The notes: generated by a model from the sequence alone, not told the origin. A stretch of 64,000 bases of DNA from Candidatus Peregrinibacteria bacterium (GCA_020429235.1 JAGQLQ010000025.1:310-64309), one strand, 5' to 3'. Counted from the first letter of the stretch, positions 25,301-62,944 are shown. Numbers and translations are program-made.

Positions 25301-26955
25301 TCAATTTTTCCCGGACCTTTGATGGTTGTGGGATGATCTTTCAAAACGTCTGTCATGACTGCTGTTTGGCCTTCCGGGATGTCGATAGACGTGATCTCTC
25401 CCTTCATGAGTTTGTCGTAGTAGTACTTCACCGGATTGGTGATGTCCTGGGTTTCTGCGTCGATTGGATATTGGTATCTAATAAGGAGACGGAGTCCTTC
25501 CATGACATGTTTTGCTGCCATGTAGACCTCTTCGTCGCTGTCCCACATATTGTCCAGGTCGTCCTTGATGTCCGCACGACGCTCTGCTTTGAGTTCAACA
25601 AAGTCTTCCATCTCTTTCATCATCATGTCGATAGACACGTTCATGCTGGCAATCATGTCAGTGGCGATGCTGTGGCGCATAGAAAGTTCCAGGTATTTCT
25701 TCTGCTCTTTTGCCATTTCCTGCAGGCTTTCCGGGAGTGAGTCGACATTGATGTCAGCGAGTAGAGACAGTGCTTCCCGCATTTTTTGTTGTGACTCATA
25801 CGCTTCCAGTTTTGGATAGCCGTTTTCGTCGAGTTGACCCATTTCGTAAAGGGCCAGCTGTGCCTGCCAGTATTTTTTCTCGTTTTCCGGTGAGTTTTCG
25901 ATCTTGTTTTTTAATCCTTCTAAAAGCTGCTCTTCCTGAGTGGCTTTTTGATTCTTGATGATCTCCTGCATCAACTGGAATCCTTTTTCTGGATCTTTTT
26001 CTCCAATGCTTTGAAAAACCCTTTCAAGAACCGGACCACGCGCCTGCTCGGGTAGACGATTGAGTCCTTCAACCATAGCGATGATGCCAAGTCTGGCATA
26101 GCTGTCGATGACGTTTGTCGACTCTTTGTCGAGGTCGATATTAATGGTTTCACCAAACTTGTTTGTGGTTGGAAGGATGTTTGAAGAGACGGTGTGGGCA
26201 ATCATGTAATCCCCGTTGACGATTTTCACGTCCGGGTAGTCTTCATCTGGTGTTTCAGCTTTTTTCCCTGGCTGTACTTCTGGCTTGTCGGGCTTTTCTC
26301 CTGGCTCTGGCTTTTTTTCTTTGCGGGAAAAAGTGCGAACGTATCGTTCATCTTTGTTTGTGACCGTTTCTCCAATACTTAAATGGAAAATGCACTCGCT
26401 TTTTTCCAGGGCCTCTGTAGAAGGGAAAGCGTCCATGGCACGCTGAAATGCGAGAACAAAGTTATAGATTCCAACGGAGCTAAAGAGTTGTTCTGATGTT
26501 TTTCCTTTTTCAAAAACAGATTTTTTTTGACTCCCTAGTTTTTTAAGCATGTCCAGATGCTGCTCGATCAGTTTCTGCGTGGCGGACGTGAAACGATCCT
26601 TTCCCTGCTCTTTTTCATAAATTTTGACCAGGAGTGCTGCCGCTTCGGACTTGTCTTTATAGACTTTTTCGGTGATCGCGCGCGCCCCGTATGGAGTGGC
26701 GTCCACGCTTCCCTCAACCACATTGAATTTTTTTTCTAGTTTTGCGCCATCATATTCGCCCAGTTCGTAGTGGTGATCTTCGCGAATGTCCACGTTTTCA
26801 ATCTGTTGCTTGAGCCGTTCACGCTTGGACTTACTGATAATTTTCTTTTTGCCAACCTCTTCAGCCTCTCTTTGAAGACGTTCGGCTTTTTCGATTGCCG
26901 TCTCATTGTGGGGCGGACGCTCCTGGTTTGGATTATGTTTTTCTGTTTCTCCCAT
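22381..26955 (-). CDS. Giant (1524 aa) hypothetical protein: coiled-coil N-terminus, central Gly/Ala-rich hydrophobic module, two tandem 74-aa beta-type repeats, coiled-coil C-terminus
   Basis: No signal peptide. The ends are K/E-rich helical sequence. The hydrophobic module maps to about 23715-24415 (ATWGAGTYAAAALAAARLG...). The start lies 1 nt after the stop of the upstream SLH protein. Confidence 0.85.
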   Translation of the reverse strand: MGETEKHNPNQERPPHNETAIEKAERLQREAEEVGKKKIISKSKRERLKQQIENVDIREDHHYELGEYDGAKLEKKFNVVEGSVDATPYGARAITEKVYKDKSEAAALLVKIYEKEQGKDRFTSATQKLIEQHLDMLKKLGSQKKSVFEKGKTSEQLFSSVGIYNFVLAFQRAMDAFPSTEALEKSECIFHLSIGETVTNKDERYVRTFSRKEKKPEPGEKPDKPEVQPGKKAETPDEDYPDVKIVNGDYMIAHTVSSNILPTTNKFGETINIDLDKESTNVIDSYARLGIIAMVEGLNRLPEQARGPVLERVFQSIGEKDPEKGFQLMQEIIKNQKATQEEQLLEGLKNKIENSPENEKKYWQAQLALYEMGQLDENGYPKLEAYESQQKMREALSLLADINVDSLPESLQEMAKEQKKYLELSMRHSIATDMIASMNVSIDMMMKEMEDFVELKAERRADIKDDLDNMWDSDEEVYMAAKHVMEGLRLLIRYQYPIDAETQDITNPVKYYYDKLMKGEITSIDIPEGQTAVMTDVLKDHPTTIKGPGKIDLNELFVDRQEEARLFEEYQSGKERLGEKGIWALAKDTRDSVYDTIVPESIREYSNWIIGGVAGASMPWMIPSVIAGGALPEYFGGERSSFMEKQSKGGILQRSSEIFPENGDLAAFLNENPGGNAKDVENLGAVEKMQIEKIRHMFISGQFYEARALCIQILQKRLDEKKKFRMEKVDTTTPEFRELIEDHGEQIKAQAKLQLLEQGIDESNFAEQNIPKPGGGSYANLDEFIEEKMMDALKGRAYIDEQGVNASHFTDEEVSNFSGYEKKALELLNDLNGEGAFDLTEENAIIAKEITQLVVEIAIIELATWGAGTYAAAALAAARLGQMGVRAMEVANMVARASEYAAKVPRIASAGKTIAHATLFVQAQATMHGNAGILGTAEGWRQVGYTAATFGMMKGVQGLARGTAEGMVRTVEEGATGFQRLRHPLQQLQYLNRTARASGKLGTAGAEVAEGFVEIGALQGMSQLEQKMAIIYNQWTGDKKGELAARARDTKFWDWKELAHTAAVVISLRGGRLGGEMIGGTKHTPTITIGNKQFLAGEKIIFKQGNKIKSGIAVGVKEIPMEAGKILRLEIKTPDGKVVETSYGDIITESTGLPGEPNKMITIDKMHFFPGERVNFKEGNSVKSGKVLGLAEIPIEGGKIIRLKVKMPNGEIMTTSSADVVAPPKEGPGKIRQYLSERADRLGQKISSAKETIGEKSKSAKQRVVEQYGKLKEIVQKRSFLKNVKEELKISEKAQKGAEKELQELKDAIQNEQKIDVAKQVESIRQKAEDAKMSADAAKVMSDLALAKGVAEFKGVELTEAFQPSMSDAKAALKAEKAGELKGVHMKETSDRYKQARKAAEKAEKAAQEAEQIGLRSVVSEVGDAALKKADRVGKIRTEIEEAIKEKDLETAKSKLEEMKEIHDQVKEDTLDVMYAADQVPTSDAFKKIKKQVVNARAQATLDVEAAEKAINGNQPSRLRIATD
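23266..23697 (-). repeat. Tandem duplication of a 74-aa domain inside the 1524-aa protein
   Basis: ITIGNKQFLAGEKIIFKQGNKIKSGIAVGVKEIPMEAGKILRLEIKTPDGKVVETS aligns with ITIDKMHFFPGERVNFKEGNSVKSGKVLGLAEIPIEGGKIIRLKVKMPNGEIMTTS at about 50% identity by hand, starting at aa 1087 and 1161. Confidence 0.85.
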
Positions 26956-34944: not shown

Positions 34945-35277
34945 ATGTCTCAACGCGAAAAAAAAGAACAACTTCTCCGTGATGAGATGGAGCGATGCAT
35001 TTTGCTCCCTCCTGATGAGAAGAAATTCTGGATTGAAAATGCTGCGATTCTACCAAATGCAATGCTGGATGAAGTGTTCCGCATTGTTCAAGAAAAAAAT
35101 GAAACGGTGGATCGATACATTGAAGCGGCGCTTGCCGAGGATAAAGATCGAAAATATCTCTCGGAACTGAAAGCCAAGATTAAAAAAATGAAAACTGAAG
35201 CTTTTGCAATGGAGGAAAAGAGTGAGGAAGAGAGTGTTGAAGAAATCCTGGAACAACAACTTGAAGATCTTTCATGA
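34945..35277 (+). CDS. Small acidic helical protein, translationally coupled to the giant kinase gene
   Basis: 110 aa with an acidic C-terminus (EEKSEEESVEEILEQQLEDLS). Its stop overlaps the ATG of the next gene (ATGA at 35274-35277). Confidence 0.6.
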   Translation: MSQREKKEQLLRDEMERCILLPPDEKKFWIENAAILPNAMLDEVFRIVQEKNETVDRYIEAALAEDKDRKYLSELKAKIKKMKTEAFAMEEKSEEESVEEILEQQLEDLS

Positions 35278-38200
35278 CCGAAAAACTTGGCGGACAGATA
35301 GATGTGAAGCAACAAGAGATTGAAAGTCTTAAGGGGCCTGCAGCGGCGAAGACTGAAATTTCAAGGTATCGGAGTACCTATGTTAATGCTGTTGATTCAG
35401 GCCAAACAGAGATGTTAACGGCTGCGGGAAAATTGAAATCCCCTGAAGCCAAGGCCTATTTAAAAAAAGCTTCTGGAGAGATTGCCGGCCAGCTTGGATC
35501 CATGGCGGATCGGGGACGGGAGATTATTAAAGCTCATGAAGATACCAAAGAGGGAAAACCTGAAAAGGTTCCGAGTATGGACCAATTGAGTGGTGATCTG
35601 AGTAAAAAACTGGGGCAGCTTAAAAAATCTATCGATGCATTTAAAGTTTTGGAGGAGATTGAAAATGATGATCTTCCAAAGGTTGAAAAAGCAAATGGGA
35701 AATTGAATAGCAGTGAGGGTTCAAAAGATCCACTCACGATTTTTTCTGCAAAAGAGAAATTGTTGGGCGATCTGAATCGTTTAAGTCCAAAGTTTATAAG
35801 CACTCCTGGCTCGCGTGAATATTCAAAGAAGGTTGTTAAAAAATATCAGGATCTGGCCAAAAAAATTGGCGAGGAAAAAGATGAACTGGCACTTGGCCCT
35901 ACAGCCCGACATATTATTGCCAATGATTTCTTTAAGTCTGTGAGCACCTATGAAACGCTTGTAAAAGCTGTTGAGAGTAATCCTTCAATGGAAACTCTTC
36001 GGGCAGCTGAGGCGCAGGCGGAGAAAATTGATCCTGTAAAAGCCCATGCAGAAATTTTTGATGAAAAGGAAGAAGGTTCGTACGCCTACATCAATAACAT
36101 GTATAAACACCTTGAGACTGAATTTGAAAAATCCAAATCCAGTTATGAAGGTTTGAAAGATAGTTTTGAAGAGGCAGAGAAAGAGGCTTTGACCAAGGCT
36201 GCGGAAAAAATGATTGCCGATATTGCCTCTGCTGAAAAAGAGACTGTCGGACCTTTATGGGATAAATATGAACCTTTATCAAGGCGTACTGATTTAAATG
36301 GTAAGGAGCTGGAGGATTATGAGAAAAATGAAAAGGCGCTCCTTTCAGCTTATTTAACGCTCAAAATGACTGTTTCCCCTTTTGTGAATAAGGAAACACA
36401 GTACAAGCTTCAGGGAGATATTTATGGAAAAGTTCAGGCCAAGATTAAGGAGATTGATGATCGGGTTCGGCAGATTGAGGTGAATCGTCAGACACGAAAG
36501 AGTATGGCCTCACTTGGTGAGGTTGGGGCTAATGTTTTTAGTTACGTCACTTTTTTGGGAGAAGAAAAGGATGGCAAGATTTATACTTTCAACGCGGCCT
36601 ATGATGCTCTTTCAGATGAAAAAAAACAGGAGGTGCGTATGGCTGTTGAGAGCATTATTGCGAGAGACCAGGCTGAAGTGAAGGCTGAAACTCAAAAAGC
36701 TATGGTGGAACTTTCAAAATCTACCGGTAATTTTGATCAAATTTCTGAAGTCCTGGGAGAGAAATCTAAAAAGTATGCTGAAGGTTTACAGCTTTTGGCA
36801 TCCGGAAAACATACAGAAGCAGTGGCCGCTTTCGAAGCTTATGTTGGTCAAACGTTTTCTGCCGAAGAACGCGAACTGAACTCTGCTGCTCTTGCTGATG
36901 CGCAGGAAAAGATCCGACTTATAAAATATTCTGGAGATTTTTATGAAGGATTAAAACAGTATGGAGCTGGGGATATTAATGCAGCTTCGAAAAGCCTTGC
37001 CGGCTATGTTAAGTGGGCGGAAGGCAGCGGCGATAAAGAGCTCCACAAAGAACAGATTAATCAGGCCCGTGAAGTGCTTCATTTGATTGGTTTAACCAAG
37101 GTGAAACAGCTGGATAATCTGCTTGAAGACGTGAAATACTGGAAGAAAAAAGATCTTCAGGATCGATATGGTAAGAATGGTGAAAAAATCGATTTCAGAA
37201 TTACAGGGCCGGAAGTGGATGTGATTGTTGATGGTATTCGTGGGTTGAAATCCAAGGTTCAAAAAGGTGAACTGATTGATTATGATGAAGAGTTTGCCAA
37301 GTTGAAAGCCAGTGTTCATTTATATTTGCAGAAGAATGCTTTTGATCCGAAAAATAATGTAATTGATAAATTTTCGGAACTTTATGAAGGGATGAATTCG
37401 ACGGATCCAGAGGTCCGAAAAAAAACATGTATTAAATTTGCCAAAGAACTTCGTGATCTCCGGGGATATGATAAAGCCCGTGAGTATTTGGATAAAGCTC
37501 TCGCAGATGAGTACCGTGAGGCGGCCAAAGATGTGAGTCAGGAAAAAATTATGCGGGAAATGTTGGGCGATAAGATGATTATGGATAATGTCCGGAAAGC
37601 GGCATCTGCCTATCTGACTGAATTTAAAAAAGATAATCCTGATATTCCGGAAGATCAATTGAGGAAACAGGCTGAACAGATTGTTTTTAATATGTGGCTC
37701 CAAAAGCGTTATTCCCGTGAATTGCGACATCATATGACCGGGCAGGGGCTTGCTGATTCTACTGAAGCTTTAAGTCTTTATAATAATTGGTCGCCGTATG
37801 AAGAGGATAAAGATACTTCATGGTACAAACCGTGGAATTATGAGTACATGAGTGCGGAGGAATATGATCAGTTTAAAGATGCTGCCAAAGAGAATCTGGC
37901 GTTGACGATTGCGACACTCCCTATTGGATTTGGTGCGGGTGCCGTTGGTGCGCAGATTGGGAAAGTGGCTTTTCGTTCGTTGGCAACGCGTTTGTTAATA
38001 CGAACAGGTGCTGCTGGAGCCGAAGCAGCAATTCTTGCTATTGAGGAGGGTGGTGTGCAGGCAATCCGGTTTGGATCTCAGGCCTGGAAGGCTCTTACCC
38101 CGCAGATGCAACGTGCCATTATTCTGTCCCGAGTTGGAGCTGGTGCCTTAAGTGTCACGGTAGAAGGAACGCTTCTCTTGGGAGGAAGTACTGTTGCTGA

Positions 38201-46827: not shown

Positions 46828-48066
46828 ATGAAGAAGTTTCAAAAGTTTGGAAAATATTTCTTGGTTTTTGCCATCATTTTCTTATTTGGATGGGAGAGTG
46901 CCAGTTACTATATCTTGAAAGGTTCTGCTGAATCGGGAATTGATCAGGAAGAGATTTCACCTGTCGCGGCTTTTTCTTCTTTGATTGCTCCGACTGATGG
47001 CACCAAAGCGGACCTGAAGGTTTTTTGGGATGTGTGGGATCTCCTTGAGGAAAACTATATTGATGACCACGCGCTGGATAAACAACAAATGATTTATGGT
47101 GCCATTCATGGCATGGTTGCCGCGCTCGAGGATCCTTATACGGTCTATATGAATCCGGATGAGACGGTTGAATTTACTCAGAGTCTGGATGGACGCCTGG
47201 AAGGAATCGGTGCTGAATTAACGGTTCGGGAGCAGGCGCTGGTTGTGGTTACTCCTTTGAAAGGGTCGCCAGCTGAAAGTGCCGGGCTTCTTCCTGGAGA
47301 TATTGTGTATAAGATTGATGGAAATCTTACTGGTGAAATGACGCTCTTTGACGCGATTATGAATATTCGCGGGGAACGTGGAACCAAGGTTGTTCTGACT
47401 ATTCTTCGTGATGGTCGTGATGAACCGTTTGATCTTGGGATCATCCGTGACACTATTAATATTGAAAGTGTTTATCTGGAAGAGCCGGAAGAGGGTATTT
47501 TCTGGCTGAGTGTCTATCAGTTTAATGACAACACCACACCTGAATTTGAGGAAAAGATGAACGAAATCCTTTTGAAAGAACCAAAGGGAGTGATTCTGGA
47601 TCTTCGAAATAATGGTGGTGGATATCTGGAGATTGCTGTTGATATTTTGTCTGACTTTTTGGAGGGTGAAATAGAGGCCGTAACGATTAAACGACGTGAT
47701 TCTGGTGATGATGAAACGCTCTATGTTGATGGGGCTCCGCGGTTGCCGCATGTTCCGATGGTGGTTTTGATTAATGATGGATCGGCTTCTGCTTCAGAGA
47801 TTGTGGCTGGTGCGATCCAGGACTATAAGCGTGGTATTGTGCTTGGGCAAACCTCTTTTGGAAAAGGAAGTGTTCAGGAGGTTGACCAGTTGAGCGATGG
47901 ATCGAGTATTCGCCTGACGATTGCGCGATGGTTTACTCCAAATGGAACAAATATCGATGATGTTGGTATTACTCCGGATATTGAGGTCGCCATGACCGAT
48001 GAGGATTATGAACAGGACCGTGATCCTCAGCTTGATGCAGCTATTGAATATCTGAAGAATCTTTAA
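46828..48066 (+). CDS. ctpA: Carboxyl-terminal processing protease (peptidase S41) with PDZ domain
   Basis: N-terminal anchor, PDZ domain (GAELTV...GSPAESAGLLPGDIVYKIDG), then LDLRNNGGGYL and GSASASEIVAGAIQD (catalytic Ser region). Confidence 0.9.
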   Translation: MKKFQKFGKYFLVFAIIFLFGWESASYYILKGSAESGIDQEEISPVAAFSSLIAPTDGTKADLKVFWDVWDLLEENYIDDHALDKQQMIYGAIHGMVAALEDPYTVYMNPDETVEFTQSLDGRLEGIGAELTVREQALVVVTPLKGSPAESAGLLPGDIVYKIDGNLTGEMTLFDAIMNIRGERGTKVVLTILRDGRDEPFDLGIIRDTINIESVYLEEPEEGIFWLSVYQFNDNTTPEFEEKMNEILLKEPKGVILDLRNNGGGYLEIAVDILSDFLEGEIEAVTIKRRDSGDDETLYVDGAPRLPHVPMVVLINDGSASASEIVAGAIQDYKRGIVLGQTSFGKGSVQEVDQLSDGSSIRLTIARWFTPNGTNIDDVGITPDIEVAMTDEDYEQDRDPQLDAAIEYLKNL

Positions 48067-48410
48067 GCTTCGAATTCTGATAAAGATGGATCTGCGGCAT
48101 CGCAGAGTTTGTAACCATATCCGCGAATGGTTTGGAAGATTTGCCGTGAATTTTCGGTATCGATTTTCTTGCGGAGTGCGGCGATGTGAACTTCCAAGGT
48201 GTTCGTTTTAATGCTGGTGGTGTAATCCCAGACGTATTCCAAAATGGTTAGTCGGTTGAGTACTCTATCTTTATTTCTGGCCAGGAATTCCAAAAGTTCA
48301 TACTCTTTTTTGCGGAGGTCAATCGGTTGACCATTTCTGGTGACCTCTCGCGTATTGGTATTAATCTCAAGATTTGCAAACTCAAGGGTGAGTTGGTGTT
48401 TGTTCTTCAT
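48063..48410 (-). CDS. Stand-alone OmpR/PhoB-type winged-helix DNA-binding protein with no receiver domain
   Basis: The 115 aa correspond only to the Trans_reg_C domain (LTLEFANLEINTNTREVTRNGQPIDLRKKEYELLEFL...LEVHIAALRKKID...IFQTIRGYGYKL). Confidence 0.8.
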   Translation of the reverse strand: MKNKHQLTLEFANLEINTNTREVTRNGQPIDLRKKEYELLEFLARNKDRVLNRLTILEYVWDYTTSIKTNTLEVHIAALRKKIDTENSRQIFQTIRGYGYKLCDAADPSLSEFEA

Positions 48411-48612: not shown

Positions 48613-48702
48613 GGAGAGGTGGCTGAGTGGTCGAAAGCGGCGGTCTTGAAAACCGTTAGGGGTGCAAGCTCCTCGGGGGTTCGAATCCCTCTCTCTCCGC
48701 CA
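48613..48702 (+). tRNA. tRNA-Ser (anticodon UGA), CCA encoded
   Basis: Folded by hand. The acceptor stem is GGAGAGG/TCTCTCC, the anticodon loop is CT-TGA-AA, the variable arm is long and the T-loop is GGTTCGAATCC. The 3' end reads G-CCA. Confidence 0.9.
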
Positions 48703-48720: not shown

Positions 48721-48744
48721 GGCTCACACGTGTGAGCTTTTATT
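48721..48744 (+). terminator. Intrinsic terminator after tRNA-Ser: palindrome GGCTCACACGTGTGAGC followed by TTTTATT
   Basis: GC-rich inverted repeat followed by a T-tract on the + strand. It overlaps the stop codon (48740-48742) of the convergent 1151-aa gene. Confidence 0.7.
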
Positions 48745-51700
48745 GTGTGATCTCTTTTGCTGAAAAGACCCATCGCTGCGTGATGTTCAGATCACAGGTG
48801 AAAAGGACGAGGTCGCTGGTATTGTTTTTGAGATTGTCGATATTCTCTTCCGGTACTTTTTCTTTGTTTGTAATTTCGTATGTGTGGACGGTCCGGGCTA
48901 TGGTCAATTCTACCCTGTCTCCAACATTGAGATCGTTAATAAATGGACGGAAGATTGTTCCAAAGGTGTTTGGATCCCAAATATATTTTGATGAATGTCC
49001 AAAGATAACCAATTGGCCATTCTTTTCCGGAAGGGGATTTTCGTAGAAACCGGTGCTATCAATAATGTCTCTGAGCCAGATAGCGGTTGTACTGAGCACT
49101 GTTCTCTGGACTGGAATGTTGTTTATATTCAACTTTGGAATAGTTAATTCAATGGTGTCGAGAAAGGCTTCATGATCGTGATCGACAAACATGATTGCAC
49201 GATAGATTAGTGCGAAGAGTTGGCCTCGTGTGATTGGCTGATCGTAAAGCTCATTACTGTTCAGTTCCGGAGGGATGATGTTTCTTTTGCGGAGTTCGTG
49301 AGCGTATTTTTCTGCCCAATGTTGTTCGGTTTGCTCCTGTTCTGAAACAGAAAATTTCAGTATTTGGCTTACCATTTTGAAAGCCTGCCCAAAAGTTACA
49401 TCGTCATTTGGTCCAAAATTGCCGTTTTCATAGCCGCTAATGAGATCAAAATAGAGCGCTGTATTGAGGTATGGCTGATACCAGGCTCCCTCTTCTGTAT
49501 CTGGGAAAATTGCGCGTTTATCTTCGAAAATAGTGGCTTCTGTGGTGTAGAGAATGAGTTTTAGTGCTTCCACACGAGATATATGACGTTCCAACTGAAC
49601 AGTCCCATCCTGATATCCTTCAACAACTCCCTGCAGATAAAGAACCACTGTTGGTTCAAAATAGAGATGGTTTATGCCCAGATCACTGAATGGAGATGTT
49701 GCTCCGTATACTCGTGCCAAAGCGGATGAGATGGTGGCGTCGACGCCAGTTCGTGGCCAAACCTGAGTATGAACCAGGTCGTCTTTTACGCGGATAAGTT
49801 GTCGTGTTGGAGCTTCCGCTATTTTTTCAATCGCGGCCTGGATTGATTCTTCAGGATCTTGTGGAGTTTCTTCCGGGCTCTCTTCCGGGTTTTCTGTTTC
49901 TGGATCTTCTTGTGGATCTTCCGATGGATCTGGTATCTGGAGTGGGGTGGATCGACCTCCTGCTCCTCCACCGCCGGATGAGACTGTTGAAGCACTATCG
50001 TTGATGGTTATTTGATAGTCTTCCACTTCTCCTATTCCTCCATCGCCACTTGATCCCAGTCCTGCTGTTGGAGTGAGCCGGAACCGGGCATATGTGGTTC
50101 CTGCTGATCCTGGTGGAGGTGATATATAAATGCTTATTGTTCCAGATGCGTTGGCTGCAACGTCGGTGGCAACCTGTTCTCCAGCTTCGAATGTTCCATT
50201 GCTGTTGTAGTCGACCCAGGCCTGAAGATACGCGTTTCCTCCTGTGGTATTTAGGATCTGAATATCTGCAGTTCCGCTATTTGATTCAGTGAGGGTTGAA
50301 AAAGTTACTCCGTCTTCGTCGTCTGGAGTTGTTCCGTTAAGGTCGTCCCCGTCGGCTGATGCTGTTGGTTGCCCATCCAGTTCATCATCGACAGCTGTTC
50401 CCATGAAAAGGTCTGCATCGATCGTGTGAAATGCACCTGTTGATGCCGCGAGTGTGGCATATGAGTCTGGAGCGTCGCCGTAGTCGTAGACTGCTAATGT
50501 TGAGTTTTCAAATGCTCCGATTTCGCAGTCAGTCATTCCCGGGCGGGGATAGTCTCTTTGATCCTGGAGTGTAATACCCGCGAATTCGGCAAGGATATTT
50601 GTTCCAAATGGATGTGCCGTGGTGTCGACTACACTTCCTCCTGGTCCATAGTTGGCGGCAGTAAATGTGTCCGTGCATGTTGCAGATGGAATTGCTTCCC
50701 ATACATTGGTTGATGCCACTGTGACTTCATGTGTTTGAGGCTTTGTTGTTGGAGAATCAGGACCATCATTGTCTGCCAGAGCCTGAAGATCTGCTGTTTC
50801 CGGTGAGGCTGATGTTCCAATAATGTCTGATCCATCCGGCGTAAAAAATGCTGAACATCCATCGTTTACACCAATAAGATTGTATCCTCCTGATGTAATG
50901 GTTGGGCTATCAAACGTAAAGCAGTCGTCGTTGTCTCCTGTTGTATTGTTTTCTGCCAGAATTGTTCCAATAAGATGCATATTACCGTTATTCGAAAAAT
51001 GGAGCCCTGCTCCCCGGGTCTGATTTGTAACGGTATTGGCAGTGATGGTGCTGTGGATGAAATAGACAAATCCTGTTCCAACGAGATTAAAGGCTCCACC
51101 TTCCGATCCGGCATGGTTTCCACTGAGTGTTGAATTGATGATTACTGTATTGCTACCACCTATTTTTATTCCTCCTCCACTGGTATCAGCGGTATTTCCA
51201 CTGATTTCTGTACCATCTATGTAAATTGAATCTGAGTCTGTTAGGATCCCTCCTCCTTCGGCTGGCGCAAAATTATTGATGATTCGGCTATCGACCAATA
51301 TAAATTCGCTGTTTGTCTGGGTATCAGAAAAAATCCCTCCTCCTTGGGCAAAATCGGAGTTGCTTGTGTCAGTCAGATTGTTACTTATTGTGCTGTTTCG
51401 TATTTCCAGGAGCACTGCATCTGAATAAATTCCCCCTCCGCTCTGGCTTGCTGTTGTGTTCCCGTCAATAATGGAATTAGTGATGGTAACCTCTGATCCG
51501 GTTCCGATATACATTCCTCCTCCTCTTCCATTAAACAATGACTGGCCATCTATGATTTGTGTATTATTGATTGTGGCTGTGGAAGTTGTTCCGATATAGA
51601 GATTTCCTCCACCTGCTGAGTTTCCGCTATTTAAAATGACGTCATCCAAGGTTATATCTCCCCCATCCTGGCTGTAAATTAAACCTCCTTCTCCAGCGTT

Positions 51701-52195
51701 GTAACCATAGGATCCAAATGCTACTGTTGCATCACCATTAGCCAGTGTGGCTCCTGAAAGGTTGAAGGTTATTCCTGTCCCGGTATACTCTTTTCCCAAG
51801 AAAAAAATCTGAGCTTCCTCATTTCCATCAATAGTGAGGCTCCCTGAACCTGGACCGGTGATGGTGACATCATTATCTATGATGAGTGGATGCGCTGTTC
51901 CTCCACCTGCGTCCCATGTAAGTGTGTAGGTTTGTGGGAAGGTTCCCATAAACTGGATTTCGTCGGCAGTTCCATATGTTCCGGTTGCCGTACAATCTCC
52001 AGCGATGTCTGCTCCATCGTTTATAGCCTGAATAGCTTCGCGAAGATTACATGTTCCGGATGTGTTTCCTGACTCCGCTCCATCTGTGTATTCATTAACA
52101 GTGAGCGTTGCCGCTGATGCTGGTGAAACAATAGATATGCTTAAAAGCAGACCGAGTGAAACAATCAAAATTTGAGGGATGCGGAGCTGTTTCAT
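48740..52195 (-). CDS. Secreted 1151-aa multidomain protein: signal peptide, CSLREA-type N-terminus, right-handed beta-helix repeats, GEVED domain, acidic Pro-rich linker, SLH-like repeats and a C-terminal sortase domain
   Basis: Signal peptide ...SIVSPASA. GTCNLREAIQAIN is CSLREA-like. There are many GGG(I/M)(Y/F)-type beta-helix repeats. The GEVED domain runs YDYGDAPDSY...DEDGV...AWVDYNSNGTF...YARFRL...GIGEVEDYQI. SLH-like segments include LQGVVEGYQDGTVQLERHISRVEALKLIL and FPDTEEGAWYQPYL...ISGYENGNFGPNDDVTFGQAFKMV. The sortase motifs are listed in the next feature. Confidence 0.9.
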   Translation of the reverse strand: MKQLRIPQILIVSLGLLLSISIVSPASAATLTVNEYTDGAESGNTSGTCNLREAIQAINDGADIAGDCTATGTYGTADEIQFMGTFPQTYTLTWDAGGGTAHPLIIDNDVTITGPGSGSLTIDGNEEAQIFFLGKEYTGTGITFNLSGATLANGDATVAFGSYGYNAGEGGLIYSQDGGDITLDDVILNSGNSAGGGNLYIGTTSTATINNTQIIDGQSLFNGRGGGMYIGTGSEVTITNSIIDGNTTASQSGGGIYSDAVLLEIRNSTISNNLTDTSNSDFAQGGGIFSDTQTNSEFILVDSRIINNFAPAEGGGILTDSDSIYIDGTEISGNTADTSGGGIKIGGSNTVIINSTLSGNHAGSEGGAFNLVGTGFVYFIHSTITANTVTNQTRGAGLHFSNNGNMHLIGTILAENNTTGDNDDCFTFDSPTITSGGYNLIGVNDGCSAFFTPDGSDIIGTSASPETADLQALADNDGPDSPTTKPQTHEVTVASTNVWEAIPSATCTDTFTAANYGPGGSVVDTTAHPFGTNILAEFAGITLQDQRDYPRPGMTDCEIGAFENSTLAVYDYGDAPDSYATLAASTGAFHTIDADLFMGTAVDDELDGQPTASADGDDLNGTTPDDEDGVTFSTLTESNSGTADIQILNTTGGNAYLQAWVDYNSNGTFEAGEQVATDVAANASGTISIYISPPPGSAGTTYARFRLTPTAGLGSSGDGGIGEVEDYQITINDSASTVSSGGGGAGGRSTPLQIPDPSEDPQEDPETENPEESPEETPQDPEESIQAAIEKIAEAPTRQLIRVKDDLVHTQVWPRTGVDATISSALARVYGATSPFSDLGINHLYFEPTVVLYLQGVVEGYQDGTVQLERHISRVEALKLILYTTEATIFEDKRAIFPDTEEGAWYQPYLNTALYFDLISGYENGNFGPNDDVTFGQAFKMVSQILKFSVSEQEQTEQHWAEKYAHELRKRNIIPPELNSNELYDQPITRGQLFALIYRAIMFVDHDHEAFLDTIELTIPKLNINNIPVQRTVLSTTAIWLRDIIDSTGFYENPLPEKNGQLVIFGHSSKYIWDPNTFGTIFRPFINDLNVGDRVELTIARTVHTYEITNKEKVPEENIDNLKNNTSDLVLFTCDLNITQRWVFSAKEITQ
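48743..49150 (-). other. Sortase catalytic domain (C-terminal ~135 aa of the 1151-aa protein)
   Basis: LTIPKLNINNIPV is the beta1 'IP.l.i..pv' element. LVIFGHSS carries the catalytic His (codon 48995-48997). F..F...L.VGDRVEL....VHTYEIT follows. LVLFTCD is a TLxTC-like motif (Cys codon 48794-48796), and the Arg lies in QRWVFSAKEI. Confidence 0.8.
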
Positions 52196-52714: not shown

Positions 52715-53188
52715 ATGAACTCTCTGCATAATGATCAGTACCAACAGTTTGTAGATGAACTGGTGGAATTGGGGACGAACGACAAAATAACGATTGACCA
52801 GAGTGAACGTTTGGCTCGATTGGCCCGGCTTTCGCTTCTTGAGGCACAGCAGGCACTGGATTTAACTTTTTATATTAATCGACGGGTTGAGGAGCTTTTG
52901 GAGAGACAGGAGATTACAGAAAAAACGGGGGATAAACTTATGGGATCTGAGCCAATCAGTGCCATGTATGAACTTTTTATTTGTGAGGGTATTGGACGGA
53001 AGATTCGTGAGCTTCTTGGCGCTCGGATCATTACTGAAGGTGATGTGAATATGGTATTAGACATACCGAATGTGAAAGAGGCGCGGCGTGCGCTTTTTGA
53101 GCTGGATGGTGTGGCTGATTTTTATCGGACAAAATATGCGGTGGATGGTGGAGAGATGCTTCCAGCCACTGGAACTGATGGCGAATAA
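52715..53188 (+). CDS. Hypothetical protein
   Basis: 157-aa ORF followed by a strong terminator. No motif recognised. Confidence 0.5.
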   Translation: MNSLHNDQYQQFVDELVELGTNDKITIDQSERLARLARLSLLEAQQALDLTFYINRRVEELLERQEITEKTGDKLMGSEPISAMYELFICEGIGRKIRELLGARIITEGDVNMVLDIPNVKEARRALFELDGVADFYRTKYAVDGGEMLPATGTDGE

Positions 53189-58600: not shown

Positions 58601-61147
58601 CTACATTTTATTGAACACCTCAATTTTCAGCAGGTTAAGACCGTTTTTGAGTACTTGTGATACTGCCTGAACAAGCTTTAATCGTGCTTCTTTCAGTTCC
58701 GGTTTGCTGGCAGAAAGAACATGAACTTCGTTGTAAAAGCTGCTAAATGCCCGGGCTACATCGTAGAGATAGCCAGTGATGACATTTGGCTTGTACTCTT
58801 TGGTCGCGAGCTCAATTTTTTCGGGAAAGCGCATGAGGATTTTGAGCAATGCCTGTTCTGTGGTGTGTCCAAATGGTTTTAGCTCTTCCTCCTGCTTGGT
58901 TTTCTTCTCATTCTCCATGGTGAACAGCGATGTTTGGTTTTCCGGATCAGGATCCTGATCATGTACCGGCTGGTTGGTTTCTGCCGCTTCTTTTGCTTTG
59001 CGCAAAATGCTTTCAGCGCGAGCATAGGCGTATTGGAGGTATGGCGCACTGTTTCCTTCCAATGAAAGCATCCGGTCCCAATCAAAGGTGATGTTGGACT
59101 CCCGGTTTTGTGAGAAAATGTTGTATTTGATAGCTCCAATAGCCATTCCTTCAGCAACTTTGGCTTTTTCTTCCGGCAATAAATCCCTGCTTTTTTCTTC
59201 TACGATTTTCTCTGTCCGGGCAATGGCTTCACGAATAACCTCATCCAGAAGCACTACATCCCCTTTCCGGGTACTCATTTTTCCTTCCGGGAACTGCATC
59301 CGTCCAAAATGAACATGCACAAGCTCTGCTGAATCGAATCCAAACTTTTTAGCGGTTTCGAAGAGTTGTTCAAAATGGAGTTTTTGCGCGACATCCACCA
59401 CATAAACAATTTTATTTGGATGGTATCTTTCCAGACGATCTTCGATACTGGCTATGTCTCGTGTTGAGTAGAGGGTTGTGCCGTCAGCTTTTTGCACCAT
59501 GTAAGGAGGCATTTTTTCATCTTCAAACTGCACGATGTAAGCTCCTTTTTCACCTTCGGTGAAGATTCTCTTCTCTTTTCCTTCCTGAAGGATTTTTTGT
59601 GCTGCATCCCGGTACATGGCTTCTCCCAGATACTCATCGAAATCAACATCCAGTTTTTCGTAGATGATTTTTATGGCTTTGATACTTTCTTCGCGCATCC
59701 ATTCCCAGAGTTTTGTATTCTCTTCATCCCCTTCTTCCAGTTTTTTAAACTCTTCTCTCCCTTTATCTTCCAGCGCTGGGTCGGTTTCTACCTCCTGGTG
59801 GAATTTTACATACAGTTTAAGGAGTTCGTTGAGTGGATCCTCTTTTACCACCTTTTCGTCGCCCCAGTTTTTATAGGCATAAAGGAGTTTTCCGTATTGG
59901 GTTCCCCAGTCTCCCAAGTAGTTGAGTGAGACGGTGTCGTATCCTGATTTCCGATGAAGATCGGAGATTGCTTGTCCCAGGATAGTTGAAAGAACGTGGT
60001 GCACTCCGAGTGGTTTTGCAATGTTTGGCTGTGAGTATTCAACCAGGACTTTTTGGCCCTGGCCCAAGCTTAATTGGCCGTAATTTTCTTTTTGATCAAG
60101 AATTGTCTGGAGCTCTTTCTGGAGATGTTCCTGTGAAAGATGAAAGTTGATGAAACCTGGTCCGGCTATATCAGTCTTCTCAACAGACGCAAGCTTTGGA
60201 AGTGCATCGATAATGCTTTTTGCTACCTCTTGCGGTGATTTTCCGACCTCTTTGCTTAATTTAAGGGCAATGTTGCTTGAATAGTCACCGTGCGAAAGGT
60301 CTGCAGGGATTTCGATTTCGATATCCTGACTTGGAAGTGAAAGCGTTTGAACGGCTTTTGAGATTGCAGCTACTATCTCCTCTTTAAGAGATTGATCTTC
60401 TTTTATTGGTGGTGTTATTGGAGTTGATGGTGCCGCTGACATTTCTTGAGGTTGTGTTGGCTTCGCCTCGATTGGTTCCATTGGCGTTATTGCTGGTTCT
60501 GGCTGTGGAGTTGATGTTTTCAGCTCTTTTTCCTTCTCTGATTCATAGCCAAAATCCACTTCTGGATTTTCGCATGTGAGCATGTGAAGTTGAGGCTCTG
60601 ATCCACCACAGTACTTTTGCACGTGCCCGGCAAACTCTTGTGGAAACTGTAGAAACTCCTCTTTTTGCTGGTTTCCAACATTGGCGAACCAAATAGCGAG
60701 AACTTTGGTCTCTCTTTCCGCGTCGATCTCCTGTATTTTTTTCCCTTTTTTGGCTGTAATGAAATCGATTTCAATGTCCTGATCGATTTTATCCAGATCC
60801 TGACCATAGATTGGAACCATGTAGCGAATGCTCAGGTATGTAAGGATTGCCTGGACATTGTTTTCCCCTACTGGTGCTTTGCCTCGCTTGATTTTGCGAA
60901 TGTTGTTTTCTAAAAGTTGTGCTTCCGGGAGGATTTGATCGTCAACTTTGGTAGTATCTATAAGAGCAGTAATAGCTTTGTATTTACTGTCATCACTCCA
61001 TTCGCTCTTGCGTTGCGCGCAGAGACCAGCCAGAAGCTGGTGAGGAGTTGAAACTTTTTTCATGTTCGCGACGTCCTGAAGGAAGATAACCGCTACTTGG
61101 ATACCGGGTAATTTGTCGCAAACGGCCTTAGATAAGCGGATTTTCAT
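58601..61147 (-). CDS. argS: Arginine--tRNA ligase with a ~200-aa N-terminal B3/4-type domain and a Pro-rich linker
   Basis: The C-terminal ~590 aa are a full ArgRS. This part has the Arg_tRNA_synt_N-like start (EIPADLSHGDYSSNIALKLSK), a class I core (SQPNIAKPLGVHHVLSTILG, MSTRKGDVV) and a DALR anticodon-binding end (...LKNGLNLLKIEVFNKM). The total of 848 aa is about 260 aa longer than typical bacterial ArgRS. Confidence 0.9.
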   Translation of the reverse strand: MKIRLSKAVCDKLPGIQVAVIFLQDVANMKKVSTPHQLLAGLCAQRKSEWSDDSKYKAITALIDTTKVDDQILPEAQLLENNIRKIKRGKAPVGENNVQAILTYLSIRYMVPIYGQDLDKIDQDIEIDFITAKKGKKIQEIDAERETKVLAIWFANVGNQQKEEFLQFPQEFAGHVQKYCGGSEPQLHMLTCENPEVDFGYESEKEKELKTSTPQPEPAITPMEPIEAKPTQPQEMSAAPSTPITPPIKEDQSLKEEIVAAISKAVQTLSLPSQDIEIEIPADLSHGDYSSNIALKLSKEVGKSPQEVAKSIIDALPKLASVEKTDIAGPGFINFHLSQEHLQKELQTILDQKENYGQLSLGQGQKVLVEYSQPNIAKPLGVHHVLSTILGQAISDLHRKSGYDTVSLNYLGDWGTQYGKLLYAYKNWGDEKVVKEDPLNELLKLYVKFHQEVETDPALEDKGREEFKKLEEGDEENTKLWEWMREESIKAIKIIYEKLDVDFDEYLGEAMYRDAAQKILQEGKEKRIFTEGEKGAYIVQFEDEKMPPYMVQKADGTTLYSTRDIASIEDRLERYHPNKIVYVVDVAQKLHFEQLFETAKKFGFDSAELVHVHFGRMQFPEGKMSTRKGDVVLLDEVIREAIARTEKIVEEKSRDLLPEEKAKVAEGMAIGAIKYNIFSQNRESNITFDWDRMLSLEGNSAPYLQYAYARAESILRKAKEAAETNQPVHDQDPDPENQTSLFTMENEKKTKQEEELKPFGHTTEQALLKILMRFPEKIELATKEYKPNVITGYLYDVARAFSSFYNEVHVLSASKPELKEARLKLVQAVSQVLKNGLNLLKIEVFNKM
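60548..61147 (-). other. B3/4-like (PheRS beta-subunit B3/B4, COG3382-like) domain fused to the ArgRS N-terminus
   Basis: MKIRLSKAVCDKLPGIQVAVIFLQDVANMKK... and NNVQAILTYLSIRYMVPIYGQDLDKIDQDIEI resemble the stand-alone B3/4 protein N-terminus and the 'NxxVDxxNxxSLxxxxPxxxxDLDKI' core. This comes from memory of the family, not from a search. Confidence 0.55.
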
Positions 61148-61318: not shown

Positions 61319-62944
61319 ATGTCTAGATTTAAAAAAATAAAAACTAAAAACAAACCTATGAGCAAACATGCAAAAAAGCAGGTCATGCAGCACATTGCCC
61401 TTCTGGCTGTTACCGCGCTTGCGCTTATTTTGGCGCTTCCAATTGTAAGGGCACAATCGAACATTATTCCAGAAAGTGAGAATGTTGCCCAAGCCGATAC
61501 CCAGGCTCCTTCTGATGTTGAAAACGTGAAGGCTACCCCTGGAAATGGCATGATTACTCTTACATGGGATGTAGCGACCGACAATGAACTGGTTGCTGGT
61601 TATAAGGTGTACTACGGTACGACTCCTGTAACTGAACCAGGTGATGAGTATGAGTTTGAACCGGTTGATGTTGGAAACAAGATCACTTATGAAATGACTG
61701 GTCTTGAAAATGGTACAACTTATTACTTTGCTATCACAGCGTACGACTCTTCTGGCAATGAGAGTCCTAATTATAGTGTGGAAGCGAGTGCGACTCCTGT
61801 TCATGGAGCTGCCGGTGATGAAGCACCAAAGGTTGTTTCTGCCAATGTTCAGGATAAAGGTACGGTTTTGGTAACTTTCTCTGAAGCAGTGAACTTGCCT
61901 GCTTCTCCTGCTTCAGCTTTTTCTATTGCTGAAGATGGAAGTGGAACTGCACTTCAAGTTTTGTCTGCTTCTATGGATTTGAATGATCCAACCAATAAAA
62001 CTGTTGTTTTAACGACTGAAACCCAGGTTCCTGGACAAACTTATATTGTTACCGCTGGAATTCAGGTGACTGATCTTGATGGAAATCCTATTGAAAGTGG
62101 AACTTCTGATACTGCTATCTTTACCGGAACAGATCAAGAAACTCCTACTGAAGAGGAAACCCTTGATGATACAACTGGTCCGGAACTGGTGAACATTCAA
62201 ACTCCAGATGCGACTACTGTTGTTGTTACCTTTAATGAGCCAGTTGTTCTTTCTCCAGACCCAACACAAAACTTTGTGATTACTGAAGAGTCTGATTCTA
62301 CTGCAACTTTGGCTATTTCTGCCGCTGCTTTGAGCGCTGATAAAACTATGGTGACTCTTACGACTGCTGAGCAGGATGGAATGAACTACTTCCTTGTAGT
62401 TCTGGATGTTGCTGATGCAAGTGGAAACTTGATGGATGTTGCTAATAATGCTGCAGCGTTCACCGGATTTGGAATGCAGGAAGAGCAACCAACTGAGGAG
62501 ACTCCTGTTGAGGAACAGCCAACCGAAGAACAACCGGTTGAGGAAACTCCTACTGATACAACAGCTCCTGAAGATGCGACAAACTTTGTTGCAAAACTTC
62601 TCTCTTCAATGGTCGTTCAGCTTGCCTGGACTCCAAGTCTTAATACTGCCGGAGACCTTGCGAACTATGTTCTTTATAAGAGTACCGATGGTATTGCCTA
62701 TGGAGAAGGTGTTCAGTTGGGTGCAGATGCATCGACCTATGATCTTTCTGGTCTTTCTTCAGGCGTGAAGTACTACTATAAATTGGCTGCACGTGATGAA
62801 GCTGGCAATGAAAGTGAAGGTATTACTGCATCATTTATGCTTCCTGAAACCGGACCGGAACTTGCGTTCCTCTTTGGAGGTTCACTTGGACTCGGACGAT
62901 TCTTCACCCGCAAAAAGAAGAAGAAGCTTGCGCGTAAAGCGTAA
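61319..62944 (+). CDS. Cell-surface protein with two FN3 domains, two Ig-like (SbsA/Big-type) repeats and a C-terminal LPETG sortase sorting signal
   Basis: Signal peptide (…HIALLAVTALALILALPIVRAQ). FN3 signatures are ITLTWDV...GYKVYYG...YYFAITAYDSSGNES and VQLAWTP...YVLYKS...YYYKLAARDEAGNES. The true start is possibly the ATG at 61358, because a TATAAT box overlaps the ATG at 61319. Confidence 0.85.
   Translation: MSRFKKIKTKNKPMSKHAKKQVMQHIALLAVTALALILALPIVRAQSNIIPESENVAQADTQAPSDVENVKATPGNGMITLTWDVATDNELVAGYKVYYGTTPVTEPGDEYEFEPVDVGNKITYEMTGLENGTTYYFAITAYDSSGNESPNYSVEASATPVHGAAGDEAPKVVSANVQDKGTVLVTFSEAVNLPASPASAFSIAEDGSGTALQVLSASMDLNDPTNKTVVLTTETQVPGQTYIVTAGIQVTDLDGNPIESGTSDTAIFTGTDQETPTEEETLDDTTGPELVNIQTPDATTVVVTFNEPVVLSPDPTQNFVITEESDSTATLAISAAALSADKTMVTLTTAEQDGMNYFLVVLDVADASGNLMDVANNAAAFTGFGMQEEQPTEETPVEEQPTEEQPVEETPTDTTAPEDATNFVAKLLSSMVVQLAWTPSLNTAGDLANYVLYKSTDGIAYGEGVQLGADASTYDLSGLSSGVKYYYKLAARDEAGNESEGITASFMLPETGPELAFLFGGSLGLGRFFTRKKKKKLARKA
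62840..62941 (+). other. Sortase sorting signal: LPETG, hydrophobic helix, poly-Lys tail
   Basis: LPETG-PELAFLFGGSLGLGRFF-TRKKKKKLARKA sits at the extreme C-terminus. Confidence 0.9.

Follow-up and report, generated by a model that had tools for sequence, protein, structure and literature searches.

Why would a surface protein carry a sortase of its own? The question is raised by a gene on the minus strand of a 64,000-nucleotide stretch of DNA from a Candidatus Peregrinibacteria bacterium (GCA_020429235.1, JAGQLQ010000025.1:310-64309; hereafter the window), which encodes a secreted protein of 1151 amino acids (aa) ending in S-layer homology (SLH) repeats and a sortase domain (Table 1). Sortases are, in the textbook, trans-acting and membrane-anchored enzymes whose substrates are defined by a tripartite C-terminal signal. 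A preliminary description of this DNA noted that sortases normally sit at the membrane through an N-terminal anchor, which is established knowledge but does not apply to the fusion protein, and it proposed that the transpeptidase is permanently tethered in the wall by the SLH repeats and a passenger of >900 aa. Given a conserved WPRTG motif between the passenger and the SLH-sortase part, which that description had missed, this tethered arrangement is probably the precursor state only, and its tentative alternative, i.e., that the passenger is processed by its own sortase, is now favoured. Thus, from the sequence we infer that the gene product is the precursor of a self-sorting surface protein. 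We consider it fairly probable that it constitutes a self-contained sorting module, in which the sortase cuts the bond between Thr816 and Gly817 of its own or a sibling chain and the passenger is transferred to the wall.

The fusion gene does not stand alone. An exhaustive phmmer search with the last 176 aa against 1.84 billion cluster representatives returned 372 proteins at E ≤ 1e-3. In the closest relatives, fragments aside, the domain is found at the extreme C-terminus of proteins of 788-4811 aa, with lengths that include 1296, 1280, 2308, 4811, 1232, 2969, 2659, 1698, 2194, 1335, 1682, 2587, 1354, 1241, 1800, and 2725 aa. A word-indexed search with the C-terminal 386 aa gave only four weak SLH proteins and no sortase, and missed the query itself. 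The conserved unit is larger than the sortase domain, since an extended sequence motif is followed by three SLH repeats and then by the sortase. Motif, SLH domain, and sortase form one conserved portable cassette, which closes many long (0.5-4.8 kaa, i.e., thousand aa) surface proteins of Peregrinibacteria and Peribacteria whose passengers are mutually unrelated. These passengers contain GEVED and DUF11 domains, DUF4114 and DUF4215, GramPos_pilinBB and DUF11, eight SdrD_B domains together with Laminin_G_3, DUF2341, and Calx-beta, or 28 DUF11 domains with CARDB, and SpaA is found as well. This repertoire is that of classical LPXTG-anchored adhesins and pilins. The complete long homologues also start with a signal peptide, and all the members with a source name are assigned to Candidatus Peregrinibacteria, Peribacteria, or 'Gracilibacteria'. 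Some of them have been automatically annotated as 'sortase' or 'LPXTG-site transpeptidase family protein'. The recurrence of the cassette at the C-terminus of proteins with differing passengers is a first reason to favour self-sorting.

Several such proteins can coexist in one organism. The genome GCA_020631075.1 (loci L007, L008, and L009) encodes at least three divergent cassette proteins, namely P0015 (4811 aa) and P0022 (1698 aa) on contig 3 (JAHDHX010000003.1) and P0034 (788 aa) on contig 4 (JAHDHX010000004.1), and at least four if P0049 (2725 aa), presumably also on the 202,789-bp contig 4, is counted. Each of them has its own motif and its own sortase, a further reason to favour self-sorting. 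If the fusion instead stayed intact and worked as a wall-tethered housekeeping sortase, acting in trans on LPXTG proteins while its upstream xPxTG was no substrate, the presence of a separate sortase on each of at least four passengers in one genome would be left unexplained. Two of the cassette genes of this genome are about 20 kb apart on one contig, with glycosyltransferases and a MotA/ExbB-like gene between them.

The motif was found by aligning the last 400 residues of 31 family members, and its extended consensus is R-x2-[DN]-[DN]-[LF]-x5-[ILVFWY]-P-x-T-G. The pentapeptide occupies one aligned position in 26 of the 28 members that extend upstream of the cassette, which again argues for self-sorting. 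Within the motif-bearing members, P and G are invariant (26/26 each) and T is found in 25/26, and in the upstream extension R at -11 is kept in 17/26, D/N in 22/26 (position -8) and 21/26 (position -7), and a hydrophobic residue in 25/26 (position -6). The first motif position is most often Ile (16 of 26), followed by Leu (4), Trp (2), Phe (2), Tyr (1), and Val (1). The pattern [ILVFWY]PxTG usually occurs once per protein, even in the member of 4811 aa, and extra occurrences number 6 in 39,586 aa compared with 10.3 expected from composition. An alignment of 19 cassettes, which share 24-50% identity with the window protein, has no more than seven invariant columns: P and G of the motif, His, Cys, and Arg of the catalytic triad, a Trp of the sortase domain, and an Arg of the SLH domain. 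No other positions of the cassette are conserved as strongly as the motif and the triad. The protein P0011 (514 aa) is the sole member in which the catalytic Cys is replaced by Ser and also the sole long member with a degenerate motif, FPQLG, so that it looks like a decaying copy that has lost both halves. The invariance of P and G alongside the triad, and the joint loss of Cys and motif in P0011, both favour self-sorting, and neither the invariant P..TG at a fixed upstream position in 26/28 members nor this co-loss is explained by a tethered enzyme acting only in trans.

In the window protein, the uncleaved junction peptide of the precursor reads ...VWPRTGVDATISS..., in which WPRTG is a pentapeptide of the LPXTG-like kind found in cell-wall sorting signals. 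The hydrophobic segment and the charged tail of such signals are missing, and a 334-aa SLH-sortase cassette follows instead. Neither a second sortase domain nor a further copy of the extended motif was detected within the 64-kb window.

Table 1. Coordinates of the fusion gene, of its parts, and of a classical sorting-signal protein in the window.
Feature	Residues	Position	Strand	Description and basis
Whole fusion gene	1-1151	48740..52195	-	1151 aa, ATG start, TAA stop, no interruption; list of open reading frames
Sec-type signal peptide	1-28	52112..52195	-	MKQLRIPQILIVSLGLLLSISIVSPASA; read off the sequence
Passenger, part 1	29-570	50486..52111	-	CNLREA-type N-terminus and GGG[ILM] repeats; repeat spacing
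Passenger, part 2	571-735	49991..50485	-	YDYGDAP...GEVEDY region; Pfam GEVED PF20009
Linker	736-794	49814..49990	-	rich in Gly at its start, acidic and rich in Pro and Glu further on; residue counts 12 E, 9 P, and 4 D
Extended cis sorting motif (putative)	802-817	49745..49792	-	RVKDDLVHTQVWPRTG; family alignment
Motif core	813-817	49745-49759	-	WPRTG; predicted scissile bond between Thr816 and Gly817
Three-repeat SLH domain	818-1008	49172..49744	-	Pfam SLH and AlphaFold model
Sortase catalytic domain	1009-1151	48743..49171	-	PF04203
Sortase His	1067	48995-48997	-	
Sortase Cys	1134	48794-48796	-	
Sortase Arg	1141	48773-48775	-	
Sortase Trp	1040	49076-49078	-	family-invariant
Surface protein, fn3/Big_5		61319..62944	+	541 aa; Pfam and C-terminal motif scan

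Proteins that have only a part of this arrangement serve as controls. The short family members P0008, P0031, P0032, and P0038 (351-366 aa) have a signal peptide and no motif, and the cleavage of this signal peptide is placed 0-4 residues away from the site that corresponds to the predicted Thr-Gly cut, so that their mature form corresponds to the predicted released cassette. These stand-alone forms, of an 'FTCD' type, are nested among the long ones, and their match to the predicted cleavage product favours self-sorting, whereas the absence of the motif from them is unexplained if the fusion is only a tethered enzyme working in trans. One of these short forms, MCB9809708.1 ('sortase'), and a long one, MCB9809775.1, appear to share a 630,865-bp Peribacteria contig. 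Searching with the cassette profile retrieved mostly short SLH-sortases. A further and larger group, with 73 of the 150 best hits, is composed of signal peptide, SLH domain, and sortase; its members have a 'YTCWPPDS' active-site motif and are likewise devoid of the sorting motif. The proteins of this group (among P0033-P0154 and P0162-P0174) have about 360-430 aa and no N-terminal membrane anchor. The xPxTG-like matches in P0053 and P0070, both of the YTCWPPDS type, lie within SLH helices or linkers, off the aligned site, and were treated as chance. SLH tethering of sortases is, thus, not peculiar to the fusion gene; in this lineage of the candidate phyla radiation (CPR), stand-alone sortases with an SLH tether appear to be the rule, and no discussion of them was found in the literature searched.

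As for SLH domains without a sortase, the motif pattern was found in 0/15 SLH-only proteins, and the three SLH-only proteins of the window have no motif beside their SLH domain. The window also encodes a surface protein of 3132 aa (7047-16445, minus strand) with DUF7619, five DUF11 domains, and a C-terminal SLH domain but no sortase. Its passenger layout (DUF7619 + DUF11×5) is that of the cassette protein P0019, showing that one passenger type occurs with both SLH-only and motif-SLH-sortase endings. These controls indicate that the motif tracks the combination of passenger plus sortase, not SLH alone and not sortase alone, and the motif-less SLH-only proteins thus add to the case for self-sorting.

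The protein encoded at 61319-62944 bears on the question of activity in trans. It ends in LPETG, 17 hydrophobic residues, and KKKKKLARKA, a classical sorting signal that is the sole one in the window and in all the fetched loci, and it is a candidate trans substrate of the released cassette. The gene lies 9 kb from the fusion gene, and there is no other sortase domain in the 64-kb window, two facts that would suit a tethered housekeeping sortase, as would the frequency of motif-less signal peptide-SLH-sortases in the lineage, which implies that SLH-tethered trans sortases exist. Weighed against the fixed motif, its absence from the stand-alone forms, the multiplicity of cassette proteins, and the co-loss in P0011, we regard it as rather unlikely that the fusion has this function only. 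Tethered activity in trans is nevertheless compatible with self-sorting, as a later activity of the released cassette. A second LPXTG-like sequence in the neighbourhood was rejected as a sorting signal: the divergent neighbour of the fusion gene, a 157-aa open reading frame (ORF) at 52715-53188 (plus strand), ends in ...EMLPATGTDGE followed by the stop codon, but it has no signal peptide and no hydrophobic tail, and its LPATG is probably due to chance.

An unusual architecture always raises the suspicion that two genes have been merged by a frameshift or a misassembly, or that the sortase is a functionless relic, and the preliminary description had pointed to the former. This concern arose solely from the architecture, and we have found no support for it. 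The protein corresponds to the NCBI record MEZ4087874.1 ('S-layer homology domain-containing protein'), whose 90%-identity cluster contains five identical or near-identical sequences from independent assemblies, with contigs of up to 247 kb. An ortholog (L001) in a species-representative genome of an uncultured Candidatus Peregrinibacteria (CALMAI010000033.1) has 1142 aa and 92% protein identity, and it differs by 92 substitutions and one in-frame deletion of 9 residues in the acidic linker, with conserved synteny (S41 peptidase, YmdB, RecA). A third, more distant ortholog (L003) also keeps the fusion intact and the synteny conserved. The locus search behind this comparison used a 5-sequence sortase alignment and gave two loci in genomes and four in metagenomes; among the latter, only L003 belongs to the cassette family, L005 and L006 being ordinary sortases, while L004 matches the family profile but ends at a contig edge. 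The ratio of nonsynonymous to synonymous substitution rates (dN/dS, Nei-Gojobori) against L001 is 0.074 for the whole gene, at a dS of 0.50, and 0.028, 0.053, and 0.071 for the sortase, SLH, and passenger parts, respectively, with dS of about 0.4 for the sortase and SLH parts. The values of the sortase and SLH parts also favour self-sorting. Together with the conserved triad and the same architecture in dozens of distant homologues, these results refute frameshift, misassembly, and pseudogene alike and leave an artefact or decay with a practically negligible probability. They also answer a question left by the preliminary description, since the same fusion is indeed present in related genomes, i.e., in L001, in L003, and in the distant homologues.

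The label 'Gracilibacteria' brought up genetic code 25, which turned out to be irrelevant, because no in-frame TGA occurs in the fusion gene, whose translation is identical in codes 11 and 25, and the long ORFs of the window are read with code 11. The labels conflict, MEZ4087874.1 being recorded as Candidatus Gracilibacteria and CALMAI01 as Candidatus Peregrinibacteria. The long ORFs of the window are uninterrupted in code 11 and use TAA (17), TAG (10), and TGA (4) as stop codons, and this speaks against a UGA=Gly code as in true Gracilibacteria.

The sortase domain itself, the last 143 aa of the secreted protein, follows the SLH domain and has no hydrophobic segment beside it that could provide the N-terminal membrane anchor that is typical of sortases, although not universal among them. 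The complete sortase announced in the preliminary description, with a GHS His, an FTC Cys, and an Arg, has been borne out: residues 1017-1148 match PF04203 with 44.8 bits (gathering cut-off 26.6) over profile positions 1-124 of 125, and His1067 (GHS), Cys1134 (LFTC), and Arg1141 align with H120, C184, and R197 of Staphylococcus aureus SrtA, as well as with the His, Cys, and Arg of Clostridium perfringens SrtD (4d70). In a 40-sequence alignment of the domain, His is found in 40/40, Cys in 39/40, and Arg in 40/40, and the conservation of the three residues in homologues, which had been named as decisive, is thus clear. The AlphaFold model has the eight-stranded beta-barrel of the sortase fold, and Foldseek matches it with a probability of 1.00 to the sortases 2kw8, 5k9a, 4g1j, 4d70, and 3rcc, with classes A, C, and D among the matches and Bacillus anthracis SrtA (2kw8) as the best one. 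The domain is, judging from these matches, a catalytically complete sortase for which LPXTG-type cleavage and transpeptidation are predicted. A comparison with classes A-F had been suggested as a check; the superfamily match holds, but every class cut-off is missed by far, with NCBIfam scores of 16.7 bits for class C (cut-off 160), 15.6 for class D (165), 14.9 for class E (160), 14.2 for SrtD (140), and 25.1 for TIGR01076 (39.35). Assignment to any of these classes was rejected, and the domain is best described by its profile scores as a divergent, unclassified clade of the sortase superfamily.

The SLH-like repeats of the preliminary description have been strengthened to a complete three-repeat SLH domain. 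The profile PF00395 matches residues 897-938 with 45.6 bits (gathering cut-off 20.8), and the repeats carry the motifs SRVE, TFGQ, and TRGQ, in this order. The TRAE-type Arg of repeat 3 is invariant and that of repeat 1 is kept in at least 90% of the family; such residues presumably bind the pyruvylated wall polymer, as in the SpaA-SLH complexes. In Foldseek comparisons, the SLH part of the model resembles B. anthracis Sap (3pyw, template modelling (TM) score 0.75) and Paenibacillus alvei SpaA-SLH (7sv5, TM 0.80) over 164-173 columns, and 7sv5 was crystallised with pyruvylated ManNAc. The domain is, on these grounds, a putative non-covalent wall tether. No csaB-like pyruvyltransferase matched among the scanned ORFs of the window.

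Structure prediction gives a first indication of how motif and enzyme may be related in space. AlphaFold2 was run on residues 795-1151 with the 19-sequence alignment, and the cassette model has a mean predicted local distance difference test (pLDDT) of 88.9 and a predicted TM score (pTM) of 0.88. The first two blocks of 10 residues have mean pLDDT of 92 and 87, and only model residues 24-27 fall below 50. When the prediction was repeated on residues 795-1008, with the sortase domain left out, the confidence of the SLH domain was kept and model residues 1-10 stayed at 90, but residues 14-23 (VHTQVWPRTG) fall below 50 and the block mean drops from 87 to 47. In these models, the two halves of the motif are packed on different domains, R..DDL on SLH and xPxTG on the sortase. 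The dependence of motif order on the sortase domain is consistent with a presentation of the motif to the enzyme in cis in the predicted structure, and in this sense it favours self-sorting.

The same dependence could, however, be read as the sign of a lid, that is, of a pseudo-substrate that fills its own active site uncleaved and regulates access to it, comparable to the class C sortase lid or to the appendage at the N-terminus of B. anthracis SrtA. The ordering of the xPxTG segment only in the presence of the sortase domain would fit this idea, and so would the best fold match, since the N-terminal appendage in 2kw8 presumably contacts the active site. To our knowledge, though, known sortase lids have other motifs than this one. 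An uncut lid is not expected to keep a scissile Thr-Gly (T 25/26, G 26/26) either, and the segment is wholly missing in the stand-alone members of the subfamily, which ties it to the passenger and not to the regulation of the enzyme. We hold an autoinhibitory function of the motif to be improbable. The term 'N-terminal appendage' is used in PMC8361268.

Taking these results together, the following mechanism can be proposed for a self-sorting precursor. The precursor would be exported by the Sec system, and its SLH domain would dock it on the secondary wall polymer. With R..DDL packed on the SLH domain, xPxTG would be offered to a sortase groove, either in its own chain or in an adjacent copy, and Cys1134 would attack the Thr816-Gly817 bond to give a passenger-thioacyl-enzyme. 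A wall amine, for which the peptidoglycan stem peptide, a cross-bridge, or lipid II are candidates, would resolve this intermediate and leave the passenger covalently anchored. The SLH-sortase cassette, its N-terminus now a Gly, would stay bound to the wall, where it would be the equivalent of the short SLH-sortases that stand alone, and would be free to process classical LPXTG proteins such as the product of 61319-62944. In such a scheme, the cassette would stand in for the hydrophobic segment and the charged tail that end a classical sorting signal, and the enzyme would be supplied 1:1 with its substrate.

The last steps could also run differently. After the cut, water might shed the passenger, or an amine of another surface protein might lead to fibres or S-layer cross-links, so that the cassette would be a module for release or polymerisation. 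All the evidence for cleavage in cis applies equally to this possibility, the passengers include pilin-type domains (GramPos_pilinBB, SpaA, SdrD_B), and a wall-tethered enzyme may not reach lipid II. Sequence data, in fact, do not tell the nucleophile apart and look alike for anchoring, shedding, and polymerisation. Hydrolysis is a slow side reaction of the sortases studied so far, which speaks against shedding, and a pilin-type Lys motif was not seen, though no search for such a motif was made. We judge release or polymerisation unlikely as the main outcome.

Several points also weigh against self-sorting with anchoring to the wall. Cleavage itself, its course in cis or in trans, what becomes of the passenger and, above all, which nucleophile is used have been inferred by computation, and the link between the motif and Cys1134 comes solely from the dependence of pLDDT on the sortase domain, the R-T-G residues lying in a block with a mean pLDDT of only 53. 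A wall-tethered sortase may sit far from lipid II, the classical nucleophile, and the distance of the domain from every NCBIfam class model means that substrate specificity cannot be transferred from the studied sortases. Among the family members, P0023 lacks the motif in spite of a signal peptide and an extension of about 85 aa, and the 'passenger' of P0042 is merely a hydrophobic N-terminus with a linker of about 100 aa. Moreover, the sequences are related, and the conservation of the motif is owed to inheritance and selection together and does not amount to 26 independent events. The connection of the motif with the enzyme is considerably more secure than the fate of the passenger.

The proposed module shares with the classical sortase/LPXTG system, as represented by S. 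aureus SrtA, the PF04203 superfamily, the fold, the His/Cys/Arg triad, a motif ending in P-x-T-G, and passengers with SdrD_B, SpaA, DUF11, and pilin-type domains, and a classical LPETG substrate is also encoded in the window. It differs in that enzyme and substrate are in one polypeptide, in that 334 aa of SLH and sortase follow the motif instead of a hydrophobic segment and a charged tail, in the SLH tether that takes the place of an N-terminal membrane anchor, in the upstream extension of the motif (R..DD[LF]) and the preference for Ile at its first position, and in a sortase domain far below all the class A-F models. That a sortase can cleave an LPXTG motif in its own polypeptide is known from the engineered His-SrtA-LPETG-target fusion (BISOP; PMC2901362), which makes self-sorting feasible, since it shows that the chemistry can proceed in cis or between copies. 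BISOP is man-made and has no wall-binding module, and its order is enzyme-motif-target, so that the target leaves with an N-terminal Gly; in the order passenger-motif-SLH-enzyme, by contrast, the passenger would act as acyl donor, which would allow its ligation to the wall.

Other likenesses are more partial. The short SLH-sortases of Peribacteria and other CPR bacteria (the 'YTCWPPDS' type and the short 'FTCD' type) come from the same lineage and also have an SLH domain followed by a C-terminal sortase, but they have neither a passenger nor an upstream xPxTG and are presumably purely trans-acting. The SLH proteins Sap of B. anthracis and SpaA of P. alvei share the three-repeat SLH domain with TRAE-like Arg residues (TM 0.75-0.80); in them, however, this domain is the final non-covalent anchor of the functional protein, whereas in the fusion it would serve as an anchor of the enzyme and, no more than transiently, of the precursor. 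The Hint domain of Hedgehog proteins is a C-terminal autoprocessing domain through which the N-terminal passenger is joined to cholesterol. By analogy and not by homology, both systems would have a C-terminal catalytic domain, a (thio)ester at the junction, a passenger that goes to an anchor, and a catalytic domain that is released, but Hedgehog Hint is eukaryotic, has an unrelated fold and chemistry, and attaches its passenger to a lipid anchor and not to the cell wall.

The preliminary description knew of no described example, and neither a natural sortase-substrate nor an SLH-sortase fusion nor a cis motif was described in the literature searched, whose coverage leaves most subscription journals outside. 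The Peribacteria genome paper mentions just 'a sortase A' and S-layer proteins (PMC4736985), a survey of CPR protein families notes just the commonness of a sortase family in CPR bacteria (PMC6744442), and the terms 'SLH', 'S-layer', 'fused', and 'multidomain' are all absent from a 2021 review on sortases (PMC8225981). Sortase-mediated anchoring is, thus, well known, and what would be new, as far as the sequences allow us to judge, is its repackaging as a portable single-polypeptide cassette. More tentatively, and with slightly more doubt than confidence, we put forward that this cassette represents a membrane-independent pathway of Peregrinibacteria and Peribacteria with one enzyme per substrate, in which any secreted passenger can be docked on the wall polymer, the cut occurs in cis, the passenger is ligated covalently to mature peptidoglycan with neither lipid II nor a membrane-anchored sortase involved, and a wall-bound sortase is left behind to serve LPXTG proteins. 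If so, it would be the first natural substrate-sortase fusion and a second, autonomous route for the covalent anchoring of surface proteins. It would also contribute to an explanation of how the numerous giant surface proteins of the ultra-small CPR bacteria, to which a role in attachment to other cells is ascribed, are built. For protein engineering, it would provide a ready-made self-ligating sortase module. Such a cassette, being natural and compact, able to cleave and ligate itself, possibly without a cofactor, and equipped with an extended recognition sequence, would be of direct interest for sortase-mediated ligation.

The remainder of the precursor agrees in good part with what had been read from the sequence at first. 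The ORF list confirms a single uninterrupted reading frame, and both the signal peptide, with a predicted cleavage after MKQ...SPASA and before AT, and the acidic Pro-rich linker can be read directly. The GEVED domain is well supported (PF20009, residues 656-730, all 78 profile positions covered, 47.4 bits with the cut-off at 24.4). The CSLREA-like N-terminus stood as a likeness but not as a membership: CNLREAI is found at residues 49-55, while TIGR04214 (CSLREA_Nterm) scores 16.1 bits, below its cut-off of 25, and choice-of-anchor Q (NF041518, choice_anch_Q) scores 15.8 bits against a cut-off of 25, so that kinship with either family is a resemblance only. Similarly, the repeats proposed to form a beta-helix are real, with seven GGG[ILM] repeats spaced by 26-32 residues in a beta-helix-like manner, but the beta-helix has neither a supporting profile nor a PDB sequence match.

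Among the other genes of the window, that at 58601-61147 (minus strand) encodes an arginyl-tRNA synthetase with an N-terminal extension of about 250 aa, in which a weak B3_4 match (18.3 bits) falls below the cut-off. Two giant ORFs, at 22381-26955 (minus strand, 1524 aa) and 35274-41525 (plus strand, 2083 aa), have no signal peptide and no Pfam match above threshold, the sole match for both being a sub-threshold protein-kinase match near the end of 35274-41525. Downstream of the fusion gene, just past a tRNA-Ser gene, the gene at 48063-48410 (minus strand) encodes a 115-aa protein that consists solely of a winged-helix Trans_reg_C DNA-binding domain, as found in OmpR-type response regulators, without a receiver domain. 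Finally, a perfect 16-nucleotide palindrome, GCTCACACGTGTGAGC, is located at 48722-48737, between the stop codon of the fusion gene and the convergent tRNA-Ser(tga) gene (48613-48702), and it is likely to be a bidirectional terminator hairpin.

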